From contig CAMWVV010000001.1 in the NCBI GenBank assembly GCA_947177755.1, forward strand, positions 1,592-65,591: a stretch of DNA of 64,000 bases. Direction: 5' to 3'. A program made the translations under genes and the position numbers. The notes beneath the pieces are model-generated. The model searched no databases. It saw only the letters and a list, made by a program, of their open reading frames with translations, and was not told the origin of the DNA. This document shows, in pieces, positions 2,167 to 9,972 of the stretch. Each line of letters begins with the position of its first letter. Position 1 is the first letter of the stretch. This stretch comes from an uncultured Ruminococcus sp. (GTDB taxonomy: Bacteria; Bacillota; Clostridia; Oscillospirales; Ruminococcaceae).

Positions 2167-3654
2167 TTCATGTCTGATTATCAATTTTTTTATAAGACCT
2201 AAAATAAATCCTGCTATAAATTCAAAACCGCCTGTTACAAGCATGAACATACTGAAATTTGTCAGAAGTTTTGAACTGAGATAGAAAACTATATGACTTG
2301 TCTGACTATAGATGACAGGCGGAACAATTACAGCTGTAAGTCCGACTGCAAGGCAGACTATTCCGCTTGTCGTGAAAATACTTTTGTAGAATCCTGTTAG
2401 ATACCGTCCACGCTTGTCCACTATAACGGCAGTCCATATCATTAATACAAGAACCAGGGCAAGAAGAATCCCGAGAGTTATGAACGAGAAAATATAGCTC
2501 ATGATTCCGAAGTCAAAGCCTGTTTCATTTTTCCATTCGTCAACCGAAAGTGCCTTATCTGTATTACCGTTGCCAATGTTATAAATCATTGATGAAAAGT
2601 CATTACGATTGAGATTATTATAACCCGACCTGTTAAACATATATTCGGCTATTTCTTCACTTGTAAGTGTGGGTTTTTTTCCGCCGTTAAGTATGTAATC
2701 GGCGTATACAGAGGCGTTTTCTCCTATATAGTCGGTTACATTGAGATTAAGGACGAAATTTCTGAAATCATTTTCATTGCCGTGTCTGCTTGTGATGTTA
2801 TAGAAATCTGTCTGTTCATAAAGATATTCATTTACATCACGGTTACTGTCATATTCGGCTTCAAGTACTTTTTCCATATCAAGACTTTTTATGCCTTTTT
2901 CAATGACTGTTCCCGAAAATCCGAGTTTTATACAGAAAAGAATACTCAGGACAATAAGAAGAATAACAGCAAAAAATGTGACAATACCCGCACCGAAAAG
3001 TCTCAGTCCGCCTACTTTTACGGGTCTGTATTCCTGTAAAATCGGCGGTGGTTCGGGATAAGGCTGGTTCCCGACATATTCGGGAAAGTCTTCTGGCGGA
3101 ATATCATACGGAGGGGGGAAAGGCTCTCTGTAATCGTCGTCGTAATTATCATACGTCGGAATATATTGTGTATTCAGATTATCGTCATATGGTTCGGAAA
3201 AATCCTCCTGAATGTTTTCGTCATATTCTTCAGTATGTTTTTTCAGAACTATTTTCGGAAGATTTTCTTTGTGTTCCGCATTATTGTATTCGTCAATTTT
3301 TTTCTGAATCTGTTCAACGTTTTCGGTTACAGGCGCAGAAATTATTTCGCTTACAGTTTCAATGTCAGCAGGTTCTTCCTGTTTTATTTCCTGAGAAGAT
3401 TCGGTAACAGGGTTATTTTCCTCAGAAAATTCCGTCTGCTGATTATTTTCGGGCATATAAAGGGAATCTGATATATCAGAATCTTTGTCTGTTGAAATTT
3501 TTTTGTCGGTTTGCGTATCGGACTTTTTGACAAGAGATATTATGCCCGTATCTGAAGAAATACTGTTTATAGCAATACGTTGTATTTTTGCACCGCATTC
3601 AGAACAGAAAAGAGAATCGTCGTCAATTTGTCTGCCGCATGAATTACAAAACAT
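2146..3654 (-). CDS. Zinc-ribbon domain membrane protein of unknown function
   Basis: N-terminal MFCNSCG...FCSECG zinc ribbon, acidic/Pro-rich region, one central TM and three C-terminal TM segments. Confidence 0.75.
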   Translation of the reverse strand: MFCNSCGRQIDDDSLFCSECGAKIQRIAINSISSDTGIISLVKKSDTQTDKKISTDKDSDISDSLYMPENNQQTEFSEENNPVTESSQEIKQEEPADIETVSEIISAPVTENVEQIQKKIDEYNNAEHKENLPKIVLKKHTEEYDENIQEDFSEPYDDNLNTQYIPTYDNYDDDYREPFPPPYDIPPEDFPEYVGNQPYPEPPPILQEYRPVKVGGLRLFGAGIVTFFAVILLIVLSILFCIKLGFSGTVIEKGIKSLDMEKVLEAEYDSNRDVNEYLYEQTDFYNITSRHGNENDFRNFVLNLNVTDYIGENASVYADYILNGGKKPTLTSEEIAEYMFNRSGYNNLNRNDFSSMIYNIGNGNTDKALSVDEWKNETGFDFGIMSYIFSFITLGILLALVLVLMIWTAVIVDKRGRYLTGFYKSIFTTSGIVCLAVGLTAVIVPPVIYSQTSHIVFYLSSKLLTNFSMFMLVTGGFEFIAGFILGLIKKLIIRHERKNRDG

Positions 3655-3856
3655 AACAATTTTTCCTCCCGAATAGTTTTCAGATATTATTATTTATTAT
3701 ATAACATTAAGCTTTGTATGTCAATAATTTATTTAGGTTTATTTGCCGAAATCGTGTTATACGTGCTTTTCGGCATATATCAGAATAAAAAATGCACAAT
3801 TTCATATATCCGAAAAAAATTTTTTTATGGAATTTCGCTGAATATTCATGTTTTTA

Positions 3857-3885
3857 TTGATTTTGCGATAATAAAGTGATATTAT
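3857..3885 (+). promoter_or_regulatory. Sigma-A promoter with extended -10 for the ilvB leader
   Basis: TTGATT (3857-3862), 17 bp spacer, TG-n-TATTAT (3880-3885). Confidence 0.65.
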
Positions 3886-3918
3886 ATTAGTTAAAGAGTA
3901 TTCAGGGGGTTGAGCAAA

Positions 3919-4026
3919 ATGAACGCTGTTTTTATTTTTTCCGGTACAGTCATTATTATCGGCACAGTCCTTAGCGGCTTGTGTCTTAATTCATTCTGCC
4001 CGTTCACCGCTGAGTATCTCGCCTGA
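3919..4026 (+). CDS. Putative ilv leader peptide, 35 aa, MNAVFIFSGTVIIIGTVLSGLCLNSFCPFTAEYLA
   Basis: Manual translation; SD-like AGGGGGT about 9 nt upstream; 11 of 35 codons are Val/Ile/Leu including a V-I-I-I run; sits between the promoter and terminator ahead of ilvB. Confidence 0.65.
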   Translation: MNAVFIFSGTVIIIGTVLSGLCLNSFCPFTAEYLA

Positions 4027-4061
4027 TTTAATGTATTATTCAGAGCAATGAAGCTTAGTAG

Positions 4062-4095
4062 AGCCACCGGCAGAATGTCGGTGGCTTGTTTGTTA
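4062..4095 (+). terminator. Attenuator terminator upstream of ilvB
   Basis: AGCCACCG/CGGTGGCT stem followed by TGTTTGTT (imperfect U tract). Confidence 0.6.
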
Positions 4096-4139: not shown

Positions 4140-5816
4140 ATGAAAATATCAGGAGCAAAAATTGTTGTTGAAACCTTAATCGAACAGGGCTGCAATACTG
4201 TTTTCGGCTATCCGGGAGGACAGGTTATCAATCTGTTTGATGAACTGTACCTTTGCCGTGACCGTATAAAACACGTCCTCACAGCACATGAACAGGGAGC
4301 GTCTCATGCTGCCGACGGATATGCAAGAGCTACAGGAAAAGTAGGTGTAGTTATTGCCACTTCAGGTCCGGGTGCGACTAATCTCGTTACAGGAATAGCC
4401 ACGGCTTATCTTGACTCTGTTCCTATGGTTGCCATTACGGGAAACGTTCCGTGCAGTCTTATCGGACGTGACAGTTTTCAGGAAGTTGACATTGTAGGCG
4501 TGACCATGCCTGTAACAAAGCATAATTTTATTGTTAAAGACGTTTCTGAACTTGCCGACACTCTCCGAATGGCTTTCAAAATTGCAAAGTCGGGCAGACC
4601 CGGACCTGTTCTTGTTGATATTCCGAAAGACGTACAGATAGCAAAATGTGACTTCACACCCGAAAGTCAGCCTGTTGTGCCTTATCCTCTCAGTTTCGCA
4701 CCGGACGAAAAACTGAAAGAGGCAGCTGAACTTATCAACTCATGTGAAAGACCGTATATCTATTTTGGCGGTGGTATAATTGCAGGCAAGGCATCAGATG
4801 AACTTGTTGCACTCGCTGACAAGATTGATGCACCGCTGGGATGTTCTCTCATGGGACTTTCAGCAGTTCCGTCGGATAATCCGCATTTTCTCGGTATGCA
4901 GGGTATGCACGGTCACTATGCTTCTTCTGTTGCGGAAGACGAGGCTGATTTGGTCATTGCACTCGGTGCAAGATTCTCCGACAGAGCAACAGGTAATCTG
5001 AAACGTTTTGCAAAGAATTTCAGAATAGTTCATATAGATATTGACAGTGCGGAACTTGACAAGAATGTTTCTGCAAATCTTTCCGTACAGGGAGATATAA
5101 AGGACGCTCTCGAACGTCTTACGGCAATGGTTGAGGAAAAGAAACATGAAGCATGGTCTGCACGTATTGAGGAACTCAGGTCAGACGAAGCAAGGCGTAT
5201 AGAAAGTGCAAGGTCGGGCAGGGAACTTGACCCGTTCGCAATTGTTGACATTGTAAGTGAATATGAAGAAAATGCAAATATCGTTACTGATGTAGGACAG
5301 CACCAGATGTGGACTGCCCAAAGATACCCACTTAAAAAACCGAGAACGTTCCTTACAAGCGGTGGTCTTGGTACTATGGGCTTTGGTATGGGTGCGGCAA
5401 TCGGTGCGGCAGAGGCTACAGGCAGAAGAAGTATTCTCTTTACAGGTGACGGCAGTTTCGGCATGAATCTCAACGAACTCGCTACATCTGTTACACAGAA
5501 TACTCCCCTTACAGTAGTTATCATGAATAATGGTGTACTTGGCATGGTTCGTCAGTGGCAGACACTTTTCTTTGATAAGCACTATTCAAACACCACTCTT
5601 GACGGACGTAAGACCGATTTTGTAAAGCTTGCCGAAGCTTTCGGTGCAAAGGGTACAAGGGTTTTCACTAAGGACGAACTCAGAAACGCTGTTCAGGAAT
5701 CATTTGCATATAATGGTACTTTTATTATTGATTGTGCTGTTGACTGTGATGAATTTGTACTGCCTATGCTTCCCCCTGGTGGTTCAATCGACGATATTAT
5801 TACAGAAATAAAGTGA
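4140..5816 (+). CDS. ilvB: Acetolactate synthase large subunit
   Basis: FGYPGG, HEQGASHAADGYARATG, TSGPGATN, DVGQHQMW and TPP motif GDGSFGMN...NN. Confidence 0.97.
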   Translation: MKISGAKIVVETLIEQGCNTVFGYPGGQVINLFDELYLCRDRIKHVLTAHEQGASHAADGYARATGKVGVVIATSGPGATNLVTGIATAYLDSVPMVAITGNVPCSLIGRDSFQEVDIVGVTMPVTKHNFIVKDVSELADTLRMAFKIAKSGRPGPVLVDIPKDVQIAKCDFTPESQPVVPYPLSFAPDEKLKEAAELINSCERPYIYFGGGIIAGKASDELVALADKIDAPLGCSLMGLSAVPSDNPHFLGMQGMHGHYASSVAEDEADLVIALGARFSDRATGNLKRFAKNFRIVHIDIDSAELDKNVSANLSVQGDIKDALERLTAMVEEKKHEAWSARIEELRSDEARRIESARSGRELDPFAIVDIVSEYEENANIVTDVGQHQMWTAQRYPLKKPRTFLTSGGLGTMGFGMGAAIGAAEATGRRSILFTGDGSFGMNLNELATSVTQNTPLTVVIMNNGVLGMVRQWQTLFFDKHYSNTTLDGRKTDFVKLAEAFGAKGTRVFTKDELRNAVQESFAYNGTFIIDCAVDCDEFVLPMLPPGGSIDDIITEIK

Positions 5817-5826
5817 GGTGAGTGAA

Positions 5827-6330
5827 ATGGCTAAACAGTACATAATAGGTGTAATCGTTTCAAATCTTTCGGGTGTACTTTCAAGAGTTTCGGGAATGTT
5901 CACAAGAAGAAGCTTCAATATTGACAGTCTCACAGTAGGTGAAACCGAATCAAGTGAATTTTCACGTATTACCATTGCTTTTCACGGCGACGAGGAAGTA
6001 AAGGACCGTATAATCAGACAGCTTGACAAGCTTCATGATGTAAAGGAAGTTCAGGTGCTTGACAAGCATGAAACTGTTATCCGTGAACTTCTTCTTATAA
6101 AAATCAGAAACAAGCCTGAAACAAGACAGGATATTATGACAGCGGTTGAGATTTTCCGTTCAAAGATTGTTGACTATTATCCGTCGTCGCTTACAATAGA
6201 ACTTACAGGCGAAACGTCCAAGATAGACGCTTTTATTGAACTTGTAAAGCCTTATGGTATCATGGAAATGTGCCGTACTGGTATTGTCGCCGTTGAACGT
6301 GGCGAACGTTGTCTTAAGACTGTTAAATAA
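5827..6330 (+). CDS. ilvN: Acetolactate synthase regulatory subunit
   Basis: ACT domain GVLSRVSGMFTRRSFNIDSL; C-terminal EMCRTG; start moved to the ATG after GAGGTG. Confidence 0.95.
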   Translation: MAKQYIIGVIVSNLSGVLSRVSGMFTRRSFNIDSLTVGETESSEFSRITIAFHGDEEVKDRIIRQLDKLHDVKEVQVLDKHETVIRELLLIKIRNKPETRQDIMTAVEIFRSKIVDYYPSSLTIELTGETSKIDAFIELVKPYGIMEMCRTGIVAVERGERCLKTVK

Positions 6331-6391: not shown

Positions 6392-7432
<1,041 letters not shown>

Positions 7433-7505
7433 CAATTAGCAATTAGCAGTTGCTGATTGCTGATTTACAAACCGAAGATTTTCGGCTGTGAATCGGACTT
7501 TATTC

Positions 7506-7541
7506 GGGTGACGGTTCATAACAGTTCCGTCACCTGTTTTT
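7506..7541 (+). terminator. Intrinsic terminator after ilvC
   Basis: GGGTGACGG/CCGTCACCT stem followed by GTTTTT. Confidence 0.7.
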
Positions 7542-7566
7542 GTAATGAGATTATGGAGGACATATT

Positions 7567-8196
7567 ATGTCTGATTCTTATATAAGAAAATTTATGCCAA
7601 ACAGAAAGCATATTATTTCTTTTGCTTTTGTTATTATATCTATATTTCTTTTTTTGAGCGGTTTTTACAGAGCATATCGTATCAGCGGACGACATACAAT
7701 GATTGAATTTACTTTTGACTACGAAATTCATAAAAATGACAGTATACTTTTATCAGCAAAACCGTTTGAGGCGAGATTAAAAGGAGCGGAACATGAAAAT
7801 GTTGTATGTTTTCAGACATTATTAACAGGTATTATTACTGAATATGAATGTTTTATAGTTCATATTGCGGGAAAATATCGTCCTATCATGGTTAAAAAAG
7901 GTACAGCCGAATATGATAAAGTTTTCAAGGGTGAAGAAGTATCAGGATATTTCACTGAAAAGAATTTTGATTATTTTCCGGATTTTGTATTAAATATGCA
8001 TAATTACTATGAACTGGAAAATAAAATCACAGACAAGGATTATTCAAAGCTTGGAATAGTAATTGTTGACCGTCAAAAAGAATTATTAAGTTTTATGTGG
8101 GGAATACCTTTTCTTGTTATCGGACTTATATTATTTAAAATTGCAGGTTCGTTGTTTTTCTATGTACCTGAAATGACAGATGTGGTGAAGGAGTAA
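7567..8196 (+). CDS. Hypothetical membrane protein (accessory, AT-rich)
   Basis: 209 aa ORF with GGAGG SD and N- and C-terminal hydrophobic segments; family not recognised. Confidence 0.7.
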   Translation: MSDSYIRKFMPNRKHIISFAFVIISIFLFLSGFYRAYRISGRHTMIEFTFDYEIHKNDSILLSAKPFEARLKGAEHENVVCFQTLLTGIITEYECFIVHIAGKYRPIMVKKGTAEYDKVFKGEEVSGYFTEKNFDYFPDFVLNMHNYYELENKITDKDYSKLGIVIVDRQKELLSFMWGIPFLVIGLILFKIAGSLFFYVPEMTDVVKE

Positions 8197-8251
8197 CATG
8201 GTCTGCTTCGTGCGTGACGAACGAGGGTGCAATTCCCTCCATCTGTCGCCA
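8175..8251 (+). ncRNA. tRNA-like element (non-canonical or degenerate)
   Basis: GACAGATG/CATCTGTC 8-bp stem plus GCCA 3' end; GAGGG-TGCAATT-CCCTC T-arm; GTG-AAGGAGTAA-CAT D-arm; no sound anticodon arm. Confidence 0.55.
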
Positions 8252-8307
8252 TTTACTGTTATTCAGTAAATTATGATAAATAAATATTTAAAGCGAGGTA
8301 AAAAATT

Positions 8308-9972
8308 ATGAGTGAAAATTTTTTCTGTTCAGGAGTTGAAAAAGCTTCACAGCGTTCACTTTTCAACGCTCTCGGACATACTAAAGAGGAAATGAAACGT
8401 CCGCTTGTTGGTATTGTATCGTCGTATAATGAGATAGTCCCTGGACATATGAACATAGATAAAATTGTAGAAGCTGTAAAACTCGGTGTTGCAATGGGAG
8501 GCGGTACACCTGTTGTATTCCCTGCAATAGCAGTATGTGACGGTATCGCTATGGGTCATACAGGTATGAAGTACTCACTTGTTACCCGTGACCTTATTGC
8601 AGACTCTACCGAATGTATGGCACTTGCTCACCATTTTGACGCACTTGTTATGGTTCCTAACTGTGACAAGAACGTTCCAGGACTGCTTATGGCTGCTGCA
8701 CGTCTGAATGTTCCGACTATTTTCGTAAGCGGTGGACCTATGCTGGCAGGTCACGTAAAGGGCAAGAAAACAAGCCTTTCAAGTATGTTCGAAGCAGTAG
8801 GTGCGTATACGGCTGGCAAGATGTCACTTGAGGACGTTGAAGATTTTGAAAATCATGCCTGTCCGACGTGTGGCTCATGTTCTGGTATGTATACAGCAAA
8901 CTCAATGAACTGTCTTACCGAAGTTCTCGGCATGGGTCTTAAAGGCAACGGCACTATTCCTGCTGTTTATTCCGAGAGGATAAAGCTTGCTAAAATGGCA
9001 GGTATGCAGGTTATGGAACTCTACAGAAATAATATCCGTCCGCTTGACATCATGACGGAAAAAGCATTCATGAACGCCCTTACTGCCGACATGGCTTTAG
9101 GATGTTCAACAAACAGTATGTTGCATCTCCCTGCAATTGCAAACGAGTGCGGAATTGACATTAATCTTGACATTGCTAACGAAATCAGTGCGAAAACTCC
9201 TAACCTTTGTCATCTTGCACCAGCAGGTCATACATACATGGAGGACTTGAACGAAGCGGGCGGTGTTTACGCTGTACTGAACGAACTTGCAAAGAAAAAT
9301 CTTATCAATACGGACTGCATGACGTGTACGGGAAAGACTGTCGGTGAAAATATTGCAGGTTGTATCAATAAAGACCACGAAACAATCCGTCCGATTGACA
9401 ACCCGTACAGCGAAACAGGCGGAATTGCTGTTCTCCGTGGAAATCTTGCACCCGACAGATGTGTTGTAAAGAGAAGTGCGGTAGCTCCCGAAATGCTTGT
9501 ACACAAAGGACCTGCCCGTGTATTTGACAGCGAAGAAGAAGCTATCAATGTTATTTACGACGGCGGTATAAAAGCAGGCGACGTTGTAGTTATCCGTTAT
9601 GAAGGACCAGCAGGTGGTCCTGGTATGCGTGAGATGCTCTCACCCACTTCTGCAATTCAGGGAGCAGGTCTTGGCTCTACTGTTGCACTCATTACAGACG
9701 GACGTTTCAGCGGTGCAACCCGTGGTGCTGCTATCGGTCACATTTCTCCCGAAGCTGTAAACGGCGGTACTATTGCATATGTCAAGGACGGCGATATTAT
9801 TTCTATTGATATTCCGAACTACAGCATTAATCTTGAAGTTTCCGATGAAGAACTTGCAGAACGTAAAAAGACCATGACTATCAAGAAAAAGGAAAATATC
9901 ACTGGTTATCTGAAACGTTATGCTTCTATGGTTTCATCTGCTGACAAGGGTGCTATAATCAACAGGAAATAA
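8308..9972 (+). CDS. ilvD: Dihydroxy-acid dehydratase
   Basis: [45 protein letters not shown]. Confidence 0.97.

Follow-up and report, generated by a model that had tools for sequence, protein, structure and literature searches.

By sequence comparison, the 77-nt tRNA-shaped element that ends 56 nt upstream of the ilvD start codon (ATG at 8308) in the window, a stretch of 64,000 nt from an uncultured Ruminococcus sp., is real: it is a rare tRNA-shaped RNA without an anticodon, present here as a shortened copy. It very probably represents a truncated member of a rare and sporadic family of non-decoding, tRNA-shaped RNA genes of gut and rumen Clostridia, and it may act as an RNA-processing signal. 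The best explanation overall, held at slightly less than even confidence, is that an arm-deleted copy of such a gene was inserted before ilvD and that its body was kept as a signal for processing. The features of the locus are collected in Table 1.

Table 1. Features of the element and of its surroundings in the window
Feature	Position	Strand	Basis or remark
Terminator-like hairpin GGTGACGG-12 nt-CCGTCACC followed by TGTTTTT, 3' of ilvC	7507..7541	+	strongly conserved
ORF209, conserved two-TM hypothetical protein, 209 aa	7567..8196	+	40 homologues
tRNA-shaped element, short type, G-1 to C73 plus GCCA	8175..8251	+	RF00005, R2, ARAGORN -ps80
G-1 (8175) and 5' acceptor strand ACAGATG (8176-8182)	8175..8182	+	pairs with 8240-8247
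D arm: GTG 8185-8187, loop AAGGAGTAA 8188-8196, CAT 8197-8199	8185..8199	+	
Long-arm remnant ("anticodon arm"): GTC..GAC base kept, TGCTTCGTGCGT in place of the interior	8201..8218	+	alignment A6
T arm GAGGG-TGCAATT-CCCTC, G at position 55	8223..8239	+	same in 5/5 short copies
3' acceptor strand CATCTGT, C73, then GCCA	8240..8251	+	
Inserted segment relative to the empty site	8175..8254	+	L138
Old ORF209 3' end (..T V I Q *), now non-coding	8255..8269	+	last codons and stop of the L138 homologue
ilvD, dihydroxy-acid dehydratase, SD GAGG 8295-8298	8308..9972	+	Pfam ILVD_EDD_N and ILV_EDD_C

The sequence reads as noted in the initial annotation, which had described a tRNA-like element of 77 nt with an 8-bp acceptor, D and T arms and a GCCA end. 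The D stem of the window copy has 3 bp, the D loop 9 nt and the variable region 4 nt. The tRNA shape proposed at that stage is borne out by a match to the Rfam tRNA family RF00005 with 35.1 bits against a gathering score of 29 (E = 6.8e-6, positions 8176-8247, cmscan of a 351-nt region) and by ARAGORN at 80% thresholds (-ps80), which delimits the element as precisely 8175-8251 and labels it tRNA-??? with an anticodon of 4 nt. With default settings, ARAGORN called no gene in the whole window, and the Rfam gathering scan of the whole window missed the element, which was passed over by the fast filters. The same scan returned no T-box, riboswitch or leader family at gathering score; the sole leader match, to the leu/phe leader in the scan of the 351-nt region, lies downstream of the element and reaches 17 bits against 70. 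RAGATH-21 (RF03097) scores 17.4 bits against a cut-off of 70.3, and the likeness is limited to the closing stem and the UGCAAUU loop. The minimum free energy (MFE) fold has -25.5 kcal/mol as against -18.7 for the cloverleaf, which thus stands 6.8 kcal/mol above it, and the fold z-score of the element is only -1.49. The UUCGU/ACGAA hairpin that had been pointed out as an alternative to the anticodon arm is part of the MFE fold, and the stem of that arm, described as poorly pairing, is indeed bulged.

A BLAST search with 8140-8310 against 60 relatives returned AT-rich noise only, and the family to which the element is related emerged only through covariance models and a scan for the D-arm pattern. 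Its long-arm members are genes of about 105 nt found in Ruminococcus, R. albus, Oscillospiraceae and Lachnospiraceae. They have in common an 8-bp acceptor with the pair G-1:C73, the base U8, a T arm of standard form and a D arm whose loop counts 9 nt; the place of the anticodon arm is taken by an 11-bp stem, a conserved CGUG/GGGG internal loop and a hairpin of ~5 bp. Rfam matches these genes by the generic RF00005 only, with a 37-nt insertion. A model built on the short type (R1) found 111-nt relatives at 48-59 bits, and a model built on long-arm sequences only, without any short copy (R2), gives the element of the window a score of 53.7 bits (E about 2e-10). This match excludes a chance origin of the element, and the short element also recurs at the corresponding position in four further genomes or contigs. 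It is clearly homologous to the long-arm family: common to both are the acceptor G/A-CAGATG, U8, the D arm NNG-AAGRRGTAA-CNN, the T arm and the GTC..GRC base of the arm. The 11-bp stem, the CGUG/GGGG loop and the distal hairpin are missing from all five short copies, and the window copy is not a stand-alone gene, in that it lies in the ilv operon and overlaps a coding region, namely the last 7 codons of ORF209.

The initial annotation had proposed to look for homologues with covariation, and compensatory changes were found in the relatives. In the acceptor, A:T becomes G:C at pair 1:72 and G:C becomes A:U at -1:73, the latter in the family member L104. The 3' strand of the D arm reads CAT, CAC or CGC in the orthologues and its pairing with GTG is kept every time, and the long-arm relatives have D stems GCG/CGC, ACG/CGT or CTG/CAG and T stems GTGGG/CCCAC, GCGGG/CCCGC or GCAGG/CCTGT; the short and long types differ in a compensatory manner in the acceptor, D and T stems. 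The long-arm structure itself is real: 96% of cells are paired and 13 pairs are changed on both sides, a result matched by none of 500 shuffles, whereas pairing in slid controls amounts to 33-57%. A tertiary-type association was also observed, A or G in the D loop going with G55 or U55 in the T loop in 18/18 sequences, with the TGC loop always accompanied by the D-loop A. Conservation of the long arm suggests a dedicated partner, and this arm is probably the functional part of the parent RNA.

A literature search on the long-arm RNA family gave nothing specific. Its genes have no consistent neighbours, some adjoining ppk and a flavin reductase and others lying elsewhere. A phage or viral origin was rejected, as a pattern search of IMG/VR gave no matches. 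The long-arm genes were also considered as intron-containing tRNAs; this was rejected on the inconsistent anticodons (Thr, Lys, Asp) given by ARAGORN -i. Mobility bounded by the ends of the RNA was likewise rejected for the long-arm genes, as the empty site seen on comparing G122 with G145 corresponds, at that locus, to an insert of ~190 nt that extends beyond the RNA ends and includes an upstream GC hairpin and an AT tail. Public RNA data consist of assembled contigs (X7, X21, X22, X25, X37, X44-46, X48), mostly from relatives, and do not usably cover the window element; on such metatranscriptome contigs, transcription runs through the long-arm genes, apparently in one piece with the upstream gene, and no ends of the RNA were visible.

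The manner in which the element reached its present position can be read from a related metagenomic contig, L138, which has ..cctgaaatAactgttattcagtaa.. at this place, i.e., the window sequence minus 8175-8254. This empty site shows the element to be, on comparison of the two sequences, a clean insertion of ~80 bp into the 3' end of ORF209. The copy that was inserted in the lineage of the window lacked the interior of the arm. An RNA contig of a relative diverges from the window exactly past 8175. Remnant letters "GACAGAT" are kept in L033, and in L142 they likewise stand before a different cassette. The bases 8175..8182 double as codons for the ORF209 residues M-T-D, and the last 7 codons and the stop of ORF209 fall inside the element, which gave this ORF a new tail, ..MTDVVKE*, together with a new stop. 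The overlap with the end of ORF 7567-8196 had been noted at the outset and holds, the stop codon TAA (8194-8196) being situated within the D loop. The idea of a decayed canonical tRNA or an old integration site, put forward in the initial annotation, gives way to an arm-deleted long-arm copy that forms a discrete unit of ~80 bp; the other option raised there, a functional tRNA mimic, gains support from a body that appears conserved beside a freely changing remnant.

ORF209 has no Pfam match; its 40 homologues show 49-91% identity and hypervariable C-terminal tails. The element was also considered as cargo of ORF209 and this was rejected, many ORF209 homologues being without the element (G014, G027, G028 and L138, with spacers of 37-47 nt) and L036 having the element without ORF209.

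Among 162 genomes of the genus, eight carry the element family, with one copy each, four of them long and stand-alone and four short and before ilvD; no copy of any kind was found in 400 further genomes of the order. The most diverged orthologue, L036, keeps the element although ORF209 is deleted there. On comparing the window copy with that of L036, the acceptor, D and T arms were found to be identical at 49/51 positions, both changes being structure-neutral, and the arm remnant with the variable loop at 15/22 (both values being hand counts from the L036 alignment). The remnant loop reads CUUCGUG in the window as against AUUUAUG in L036. The spacer is identical at 39/56 positions, and the third codon positions of ilvC, ilvD and ilvN at a fraction of 0.56-0.64 (ilvD 0.59). 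The tRNA body (acceptor, D and T) is probably under selective constraint, since it is far better kept than the arm remnant and the third positions of ilvD; this argument stands on one diverged orthologue, L036. In the closer orthologues, the entire block of ORF209, element and spacer has diverged less than ilvD, a pattern indicative of recombination and not of selection.

In transfer RNA, RNase P, RNase Z and the CCA-adding enzyme recognise the part that is made up of the acceptor, D and T arms. As it is this part that stays constant while the remnant drifts, a cis-acting mechanism of processing by RNase P and RNase Z is proposed; it is possible but doubtful. According to this mechanism, the ORF209-ilvD transcript would carry the folded element as a recognition site, with one cut at the 5' end of the element (ahead of G-1 or of A+1) and another at its 3' end. 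The ilvD mRNA would thereby be set free from the RNA upstream of it, a tRNA-like fragment of about 77 nt would be liberated, and the ORF209 mRNA would lose its stop codon through the 5' cut. Processing would be in competition with translation, because ribosomes that complete ORF209 have to open the D arm and the 5' strand of the acceptor. Several findings speak against processing: the G in place of U55 is unusual for a substrate of RNase P or TruB, a non-stop ORF209 mRNA is a cost, the cloverleaf lies above the MFE fold and the z-score is weak. In its fuller form, which is unlikely, the proposal is that of a bacterial "t-element", a tRNA-shaped gene captured in an amino-acid operon, stripped of its arm and kept for cutting by RNase P and RNase Z, which would uncouple the ilvD mRNA from ORF209. 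A bolder addition is that the insert derives from the processed, CCA-tailed RNA itself, because the ends of the insert are those of the RNA, with G-CCA after an 8-bp helix.

A serious rival, though somewhat unlikely, is that the element is a neutral relic, a dead arm-deleted copy brought by illegitimate recombination into a hot spot for cassettes, where it only supplies the stop codon of ORF209. The cargo of the ilvC-ilvD spacer does vary, from nothing to a DUF4303 gene, a chorismate-mutase-like gene, a small Cys-rich ORF or a palindromic repeat, and the element is dispensable, since it is lost or replaced in close relatives: the same site holds the DUF4303 gene in L033 and G003 and the small Cys-rich ORF in L142. 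The loss of the conserved long arm would fit a dead copy, as would the 5 nt of microhomology (AAATG) shared by the end of ORF209 and the sequence 5' of some long-arm genes, and a recent spread is suggested by how little the whole block has diverged in L032, L034 and L035. A relic would not, however, be expected to show the L036 pattern of a near-identical body beside a diverged remnant, spacer and synonymous sites, to keep its pairing through all stem changes, or to be retained in L036 after the deletion of ORF209.

It is improbable that the short form is a trans-acting small RNA, the working family RNA of this lineage, transcribed by read-through and trimmed like a tRNA. It would then act elsewhere, perhaps by occupying a tRNA-binding enzyme such as HisRS, the CCA-adding enzyme or a toxin directed at tRNA, either as its substrate or as a decoy, and its position before ilvD would be incidental. 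The conserved body would agree with this, as would the single copy, long or short but never both, in each of the eight genomes of the genus that have the family (G000 is without a long copy) and the apparently continuous transcription of long-arm genes with their upstream gene. On the other hand, the family-invariant CGUG/GGGG loop and the long stem are missing, the element has no promoter or terminator of its own, and the GCCA tail is not conserved, reading TCCG in L036; the change of -1:73 to A:U in L104 further indicates that strict His identity is not kept in the family.

A ribosome-coupled attenuator of ilvD, in which passage of the ribosome over the Val-Val codons GTG GTG (8182-8187), located at the end of ORF209 or of the L036 mini-ORF of 7 codons (MTGVVKK*), would determine whether the structure forms and would so adjust ilvD to the supply of valine, is very improbable. 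The Val codons do overlap the acceptor and D stems, and in L036 an SD sequence AAGGAG and an ATG precede the 7-codon frame, which ends at the same TAA; but the same frame occurs by accident in stand-alone long-arm genes far from ilv genes (ATG GCA GAT GTG GCG AAG GGG TAA), there are just two Val codons, and neither a terminator nor an SD-sequestering helix lies downstream, where a simple scan found none and the hairpin present is the old tail of ORF209. A genuine decoding tRNA (Arg-UCG or suppressor), or alternatively a hairpin or terminator that arose by chance, is scarcely credible: the Rfam tRNA score exceeds the cut-off and a nominal 7-nt loop with U33 exists, but ARAGORN rejects the element by default, the anticodon stem requires a bulge, the nominal anticodon changes from UCG in the window to UUA in L036, positions 37 and 55 are U and G, and the element sits within a coding region and has relatives without an anticodon arm.

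Of the known systems, the plant mitochondrial t-elements (Forner et al. 2007, PMC1920247) and the mascRNA of mammalian MALAT1 (PMC8457004) share with the element a tRNA-like, non-decoding fold and a conserved body of acceptor, T and D arms; they lie within longer transcripts, as the element would by its position inside the putative ORF209-ilvD unit. It was demonstrated that RNase P and RNase Z cut these RNAs, making the ends of mRNA or lncRNA (PMC1920247; PMC8457004). These systems are organellar or eukaryotic, whereas the element described here is bacterial, is known from its sequence and is a putative processing signal. We know of no description of a conserved t-element-like module in a bacterial biosynthetic operon. 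Li and Altman are said to have found, in 2003, that RNase P cleaves in operon spacers of E. coli, without cloverleaf mimics.

The likenesses to tRNA-His and tRNA-Sec that had been noted earlier hold for the shapes, but not for membership of either family. Bacterial tRNA-His likewise has a paired extra 5' nucleotide, G-1:C73 (G8175:C8247 in the window), and an 8-bp acceptor helix; the element, in contrast, has no GUG anticodon, continues after C73 with GCCA rather than CCA and shows low similarity to the tRNA-His of the genome itself. The 8/5 arrangement of acceptor and T stem, with G-CCA past the helix in the window copy, is also found in bacterial tRNA-Sec and in allo-tRNAs (Mukai et al. 2017, PMC5389517), but the 6-bp D stem with 4-nt loop, the long variable arm and the UCA anticodon of tRNA-Sec are missing. 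Compared with a canonical tRNA, the T loop is TGCAATT and not T54-Psi55-C56, and there is no regular 5-bp anticodon stem. The Y RNA YrlA (Chen et al. 2014, PMC4201824) is, like the long-arm family, non-decoding and a mimic of the tRNA body with a long helix in the place of the anticodon arm. The element differs from YrlA in that it ends at the acceptor stem, and it matched no Rfam family but tRNA. YrlA reportedly ends in a long Ro-binding helix, with a closed acceptor-like stem and a permuted topology.

Processing, if it takes place, would make the element the bacterial equivalent of the organellar t-elements and of mascRNA; the operon would be punctuated by a tRNA mimic and not by a terminator or a site for RNase E or RNase Y, and a structured RNA gene would have been exapted as a cis signal. 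The element also ties this locus to rare, horizontally scattered, anticodon-less tRNA-shaped RNAs of rumen and gut Clostridia, and the short copy can be seen as a natural "deletion mutant" of the long-arm family, which reveals the half that is able to persist alone.

Two further hairpins were observed in the ilvC-ilvD region. An AT-rich hairpin at 8252-8270 (TTTACTG-TTATT-CAGTAAA) consists of 8252-8254 and the old tail of ORF209; it was rejected as a regulatory helix, since comparison with L138 identifies it as this tail and its stop codon. The terminator-like hairpin 3' of ilvC was passed over by the simple terminator scan owing to its loop of more than 8 nt, and it is near-identical in L036.

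The 77-nt element preceding ilvD is an arm-deleted, inserted copy of an uncatalogued tRNA-shaped RNA family; its known kin by type are tRNA mimics and tRNA-like elements within transcripts. It reads GACAGATG TG GTG-AAGGAGTAA-CAT G GTCTGCTTCGTGCGTGAC GAAC GAGGG-TGCAATT-CCCTC CATCTGTC GCCA on the forward strand, and the coordinates (8175-8251), the 8-bp acceptor helix (G-1:C73) and the TGC T loop described in the initial annotation all match the sequence. The overlap with the last codons of the upstream frame, which encodes a conserved 209-aa two-TM hypothetical protein (ORF209), was also borne out, its stop codon TAA (8194-8196) lying within the D loop, as was the distance to ilvD, whose ATG is at 8308. 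Whether the element is detected varies with the program used and how it is set. Under default parameters ARAGORN reported zero tRNAs in the whole window, and with thresholds lowered to 80% it called exactly 8175-8251, with a 4-nt 'anticodon'. An Rfam gathering scan of the whole window gave no match; when 8050-8400 was scanned with looser filters, the tRNA model RF00005 (cut-off 29 bits) matched 8176-8247 over its full length with 35.1 bits (E = 6.8e-6). The minimum free energy was -25.5 kcal/mol (z = -1.49), in a fold that uses the alternative UUCGU/ACGAA hairpin pointed out earlier, and the cloverleaf energy was -18.7 kcal/mol; taken alone, this thermodynamic support is unimpressive. The element is present once in the 2.6-Mb assembly. 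A sigma-70-like match (TTGTTA-16-TAAAAT, 8114-8141) lies in the 3' end of ORF209, about 35 nt 5' of the element, though the number of such matches nearby equals the shuffle expectation and this one may mean nothing.

A covariance model built from five short copies was searched against the 162 genus genomes. The short type was found in four of these (G000, which is the window's own genome, G095, G139 and G185), and a second tier of 111-nt matches, scoring 55-59 bits, was found in four others. These correspond to the element in acceptor (G-GCAGATG / CATCTGC-C), in D arm (GCG or ACG - AAGGGGTAA - CGC or CGT), in the base of the arm that follows (GTC..GGC) and in T arm (GTGGG-TTCAATT-CCCAC). Between these parts they have an additional interior: a stem of 11 bp, then the internal loop CGUG/GGGG, then a distal hairpin of roughly 5 bp. 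The set was enlarged by a D-arm pattern scan of species-representative genomes, followed by the short-copy model, and by a metagenome pattern scan checked with a second model made from long-arm genes only. This gave 13 long-arm genes, from Ruminococcus MAGs, R. albus AR67 and KH2T6, Oscillospiraceae, one Lachnospiraceae MAG and two metagenome contigs. On aligning the 11 genes of the first scan (nine distinct sequences), it was found that 96.2% of cells were paired in a five-helix structure and that 13 of 32 pairs changed on both sides; none of 500 shuffles reached these values and slid controls paired at 33-57%, so that the structure is well supported. In Rfam the sole match of these genes was the generic tRNA model (42.3 bits, the anticodon loop carrying an insertion of 37 nt), and ARAGORN in intron mode gave them inconsistent anticodons; hence, they are tRNA-shaped but not decoders.

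The long-arm model recovers the window element at 53.7 bits, and in a model-based alignment the short type equals the long type minus the arm interior. The element is not a decayed canonical tRNA, and identity with tRNA-His or tRNA-Sec was likewise rejected, the element belonging to the long-arm family. The fifth D-loop base is G in the 12 sequences with a TTC T loop and A in the six with TGC (all five short copies plus L104, the long copy from Lachnospiraceae). Such an association would fit replacement of the G18-U55 elbow contact by A18-G55, and may stem from no more than one or two events.

With the long-arm model, the family was detected in 8 of the 162 genus genomes, one copy apiece, four being long and stand-alone and four short and before ilvD. 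At E <= 1e-8 none was found in 400 further genomes sampled evenly from 179 genera of the order, and IMG/VR gave zero pattern matches. Long-arm genes were found to have no constant neighbours, and close relatives of carriers lack the gene, as in the pair G122 and G145, where one intergenic region is longer by an insert of some 190 nt. The family is thus an accessory one with a scattered distribution, and the occurrence of near-identical bodies across Oscillospirales and Lachnospirales suggests horizontal spread. Two contigs of one Lachnospiraceae MAG (L097:1-89 and L104:31-141) both break inside or beside a long-arm gene. The gene near the latter (2822-4078) is, judged by its N-terminal sequence alone, a candidate plasmid Mob/Pre-type relaxase, and the RNA gene may lie on a mobilisable element.

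Coordinates of the ilv neighbourhood (window numbering) and of long-arm RNA genes
Feature	Position	Remark
ilvB	4140-5816	first of the ilv gene order
ilvN	5818-6330	after ilvB
ilvC	6398-7432	after ilvN
ORF209	7567-8196	between ilvC and the element; no Pfam family
ilvD	8308-9972	after the element
PEMT-like gene, then SUKH-family gene		downstream of ilvD
Long-arm RNA gene	L043:1503-1607	about 105 nt, stand-alone
Long-arm RNA gene	L084:3439-3539	about 105 nt, stand-alone
Long-arm RNA gene	L074:5062-5161	about 105 nt, stand-alone
Long-arm RNA gene	L102:626-725	about 105 nt, stand-alone
Long-arm RNA gene	L104:34-134	about 105 nt, stand-alone

About 40 homologues of ORF209 (49-91% identity), all from Ruminococcus-like MAGs and gut metagenomes, lie between ilvC and ilvD wherever the contig is long enough, and their C-terminal tails are hypervariable. 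On comparing the ilvC-ilvD interval (7433-8307) with that of relatives (L033, L142, L138, L026, L004), it was observed that the cargo differs by lineage: ORF209 alone, ORF209 with a DUF4303 gene, a CM_2 (chorismate mutase-like) gene with ORF209, a small Cys-rich ORF, a palindromic repeat (in G023) or the tRNA-like element. The interval is a cassette hot spot. In sequencing run X1, one DNA contig passes directly from 7541 to 8283 and leaves out both ORF209 and the element. The palindromic repeat, tgtaggggcggatat(c/t)atccgccc..gggcggataatatccgcccctaca, was seen at L026:1381-1500 (reverse strand) and downstream of flavin-reductase genes in G126 and G029; repeats of this type occupy unrelated intergenic sites in several members of the genus and look like REP- or MITE-like elements.

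The origin of the window copy can be read from L138, a Logan contig with an ORF209 71% identical, which reads ..ttctatgtacctgaaatAactgttattcagtaaattat.. and whose ORF209 ends ..PEITVIQ*. The letters are the same as in the window except that 8175-8254 stands where L138 has a single A, and hence the element was inserted cleanly, as a unit of about 80 bp. The ends of the insert equal the RNA ends within a few bases, and most of the AT-rich 'hairpin' that follows (8252-8270) consists of the former ORF209 tail with its stop codon. More distant homologues end ..VPEM-LETN.., and a metatranscriptome contig of such a relative tracks the window to 8175 and then diverges, which puts the left junction at the G of an ancestral ATG codon. 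In L033/G003 and L142, 'acg ACAGAT aaa tga' is kept and followed by other cassettes (the DUF4303 gene and the small Cys-rich ORF, respectively), and this ACAGAT is read as a probable leftover of the element's 5' strand, that is, secondary loss. The matching ends and the G-CCA after the 8-bp helix would fit insertion via cDNA of a processed, CCA-tailed RNA; against this route, the tail differs in a diverged relative (TCCG in L036, GCCA in the window). Plain illegitimate recombination would fit equally well, as the end of ORF209 and the 5' flank of some long-arm genes share 5 nt of microhomology (AAATG).

Searching with an exact 25-mer taken from T arm and acceptor yielded three species-representative genomes, and the element is also on one Logan contig. 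Loci L032, L034 and L035 have the same arrangement as the window, and their elements differ only in the D-stem 3' strand, where CAT becomes CAC or CGC, both still pairing with GTG (G:U to G:C, U:A to U:G). Their ORF209-element-spacer block is 0.88-0.99 identical to the window as against 0.69-0.80 at ilvD third positions, which indicates mosaic recombination and is uninformative on selection. The informative orthologue is L036 (genome G185), in which a 285-nt spacer after ilvBNC holds the element without ORF209, the latter being reduced to decayed ends on both sides. Between the window and L036, third-codon-position identity is 0.635 in ilvC, 0.583 in ilvD and 0.561 in ilvN, and the 56-nt spacer after the element is identical at 39/56 positions, gaps counted. 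By hand count from the alignment, the arm remnant and variable loop agree at 15/22 positions (the nominal anticodon loop is AUUUAUG in L036 and CUUCGUG in the window) and the acceptor, D and T arms at 49/51. Neither the T arm nor the 3' acceptor strand differs; the two changes are a D-loop G-to-A and a single acceptor A-to-G that retains a G:U pair. Had the entire element been transferred recently, such uneven divergence within 77 nt would hardly be expected.

This one diverged orthologue points to constraint on the tRNA body, and the earlier interpretation is partly supported. A caveat on constraint is that high conservation is likewise seen in a neighbouring non-coding hairpin, which resembles a terminator and follows ilvC. 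Two hairpins lie 3' of ilvC (7462-7545), CCGAAGATTTTCGG and then GGTGACGG-12 nt-CCGTCACC with TGTTTTT; in L036 both read almost the same, although synonymous sites have diverged by about 40%, and they look like a terminator or attenuator that is conserved between ilvC and the genes after it.

The acceptor/T-stem stack, the elbow and the D arm are the parts of a tRNA recognised by RNase P, RNase Z and the CCA-adding enzyme. The element keeps these and has lost the family-specific arm, and the most economical functional reading is therefore a putative cis-acting processing module, in likeness to plant mitochondrial t-elements (PMC1920247) and MALAT1 mascRNA (PMC8457004). RNase P acts as a ruler of the acceptor-elbow distance (PMC4919913). 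If the transcript were cut 5' of G-1 or of A+1 and again 3' of C73, the ilvD mRNA would be set free, a tRNA-like RNA would come off, and ORF209 would lose its stop codon and be left as a non-stop mRNA. A ribosome terminating at 8194-8196 would have to open the 5' acceptor strand and D arm, and translation and processing would then compete. In assembled public RNA contigs, transcription runs at flat depth from ppk through a stand-alone long-arm gene to its terminator; these contigs show no RNA ends and yielded nothing usable for the window element. The main rival to such a processing module is a neutral relic in the cassette hot spot. Lesser rivals are a trans-acting small RNA that happens to reside before ilvD, and a Val-codon attenuator; the latter is weakened because the same small frame is present by accident in stand-alone family members.

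Three more odd tRNA-like genes were observed in the window's genome (G000:C88:1571-1645, equal to L176:372-446; G000:C21:124-195, L177; and G000:C180:3834-3906, L178:335-404), with RF00005 scores of 42-46 bits. One has a GCU anticodon, lacks a long variable arm, and shows UGCAAAU as its T loop and no GG in its D loop; another lies directly 3' of 5S rRNA and has an irregular anticodon region, and another follows tRNA-Met and has a nominal 4-nt anticodon.
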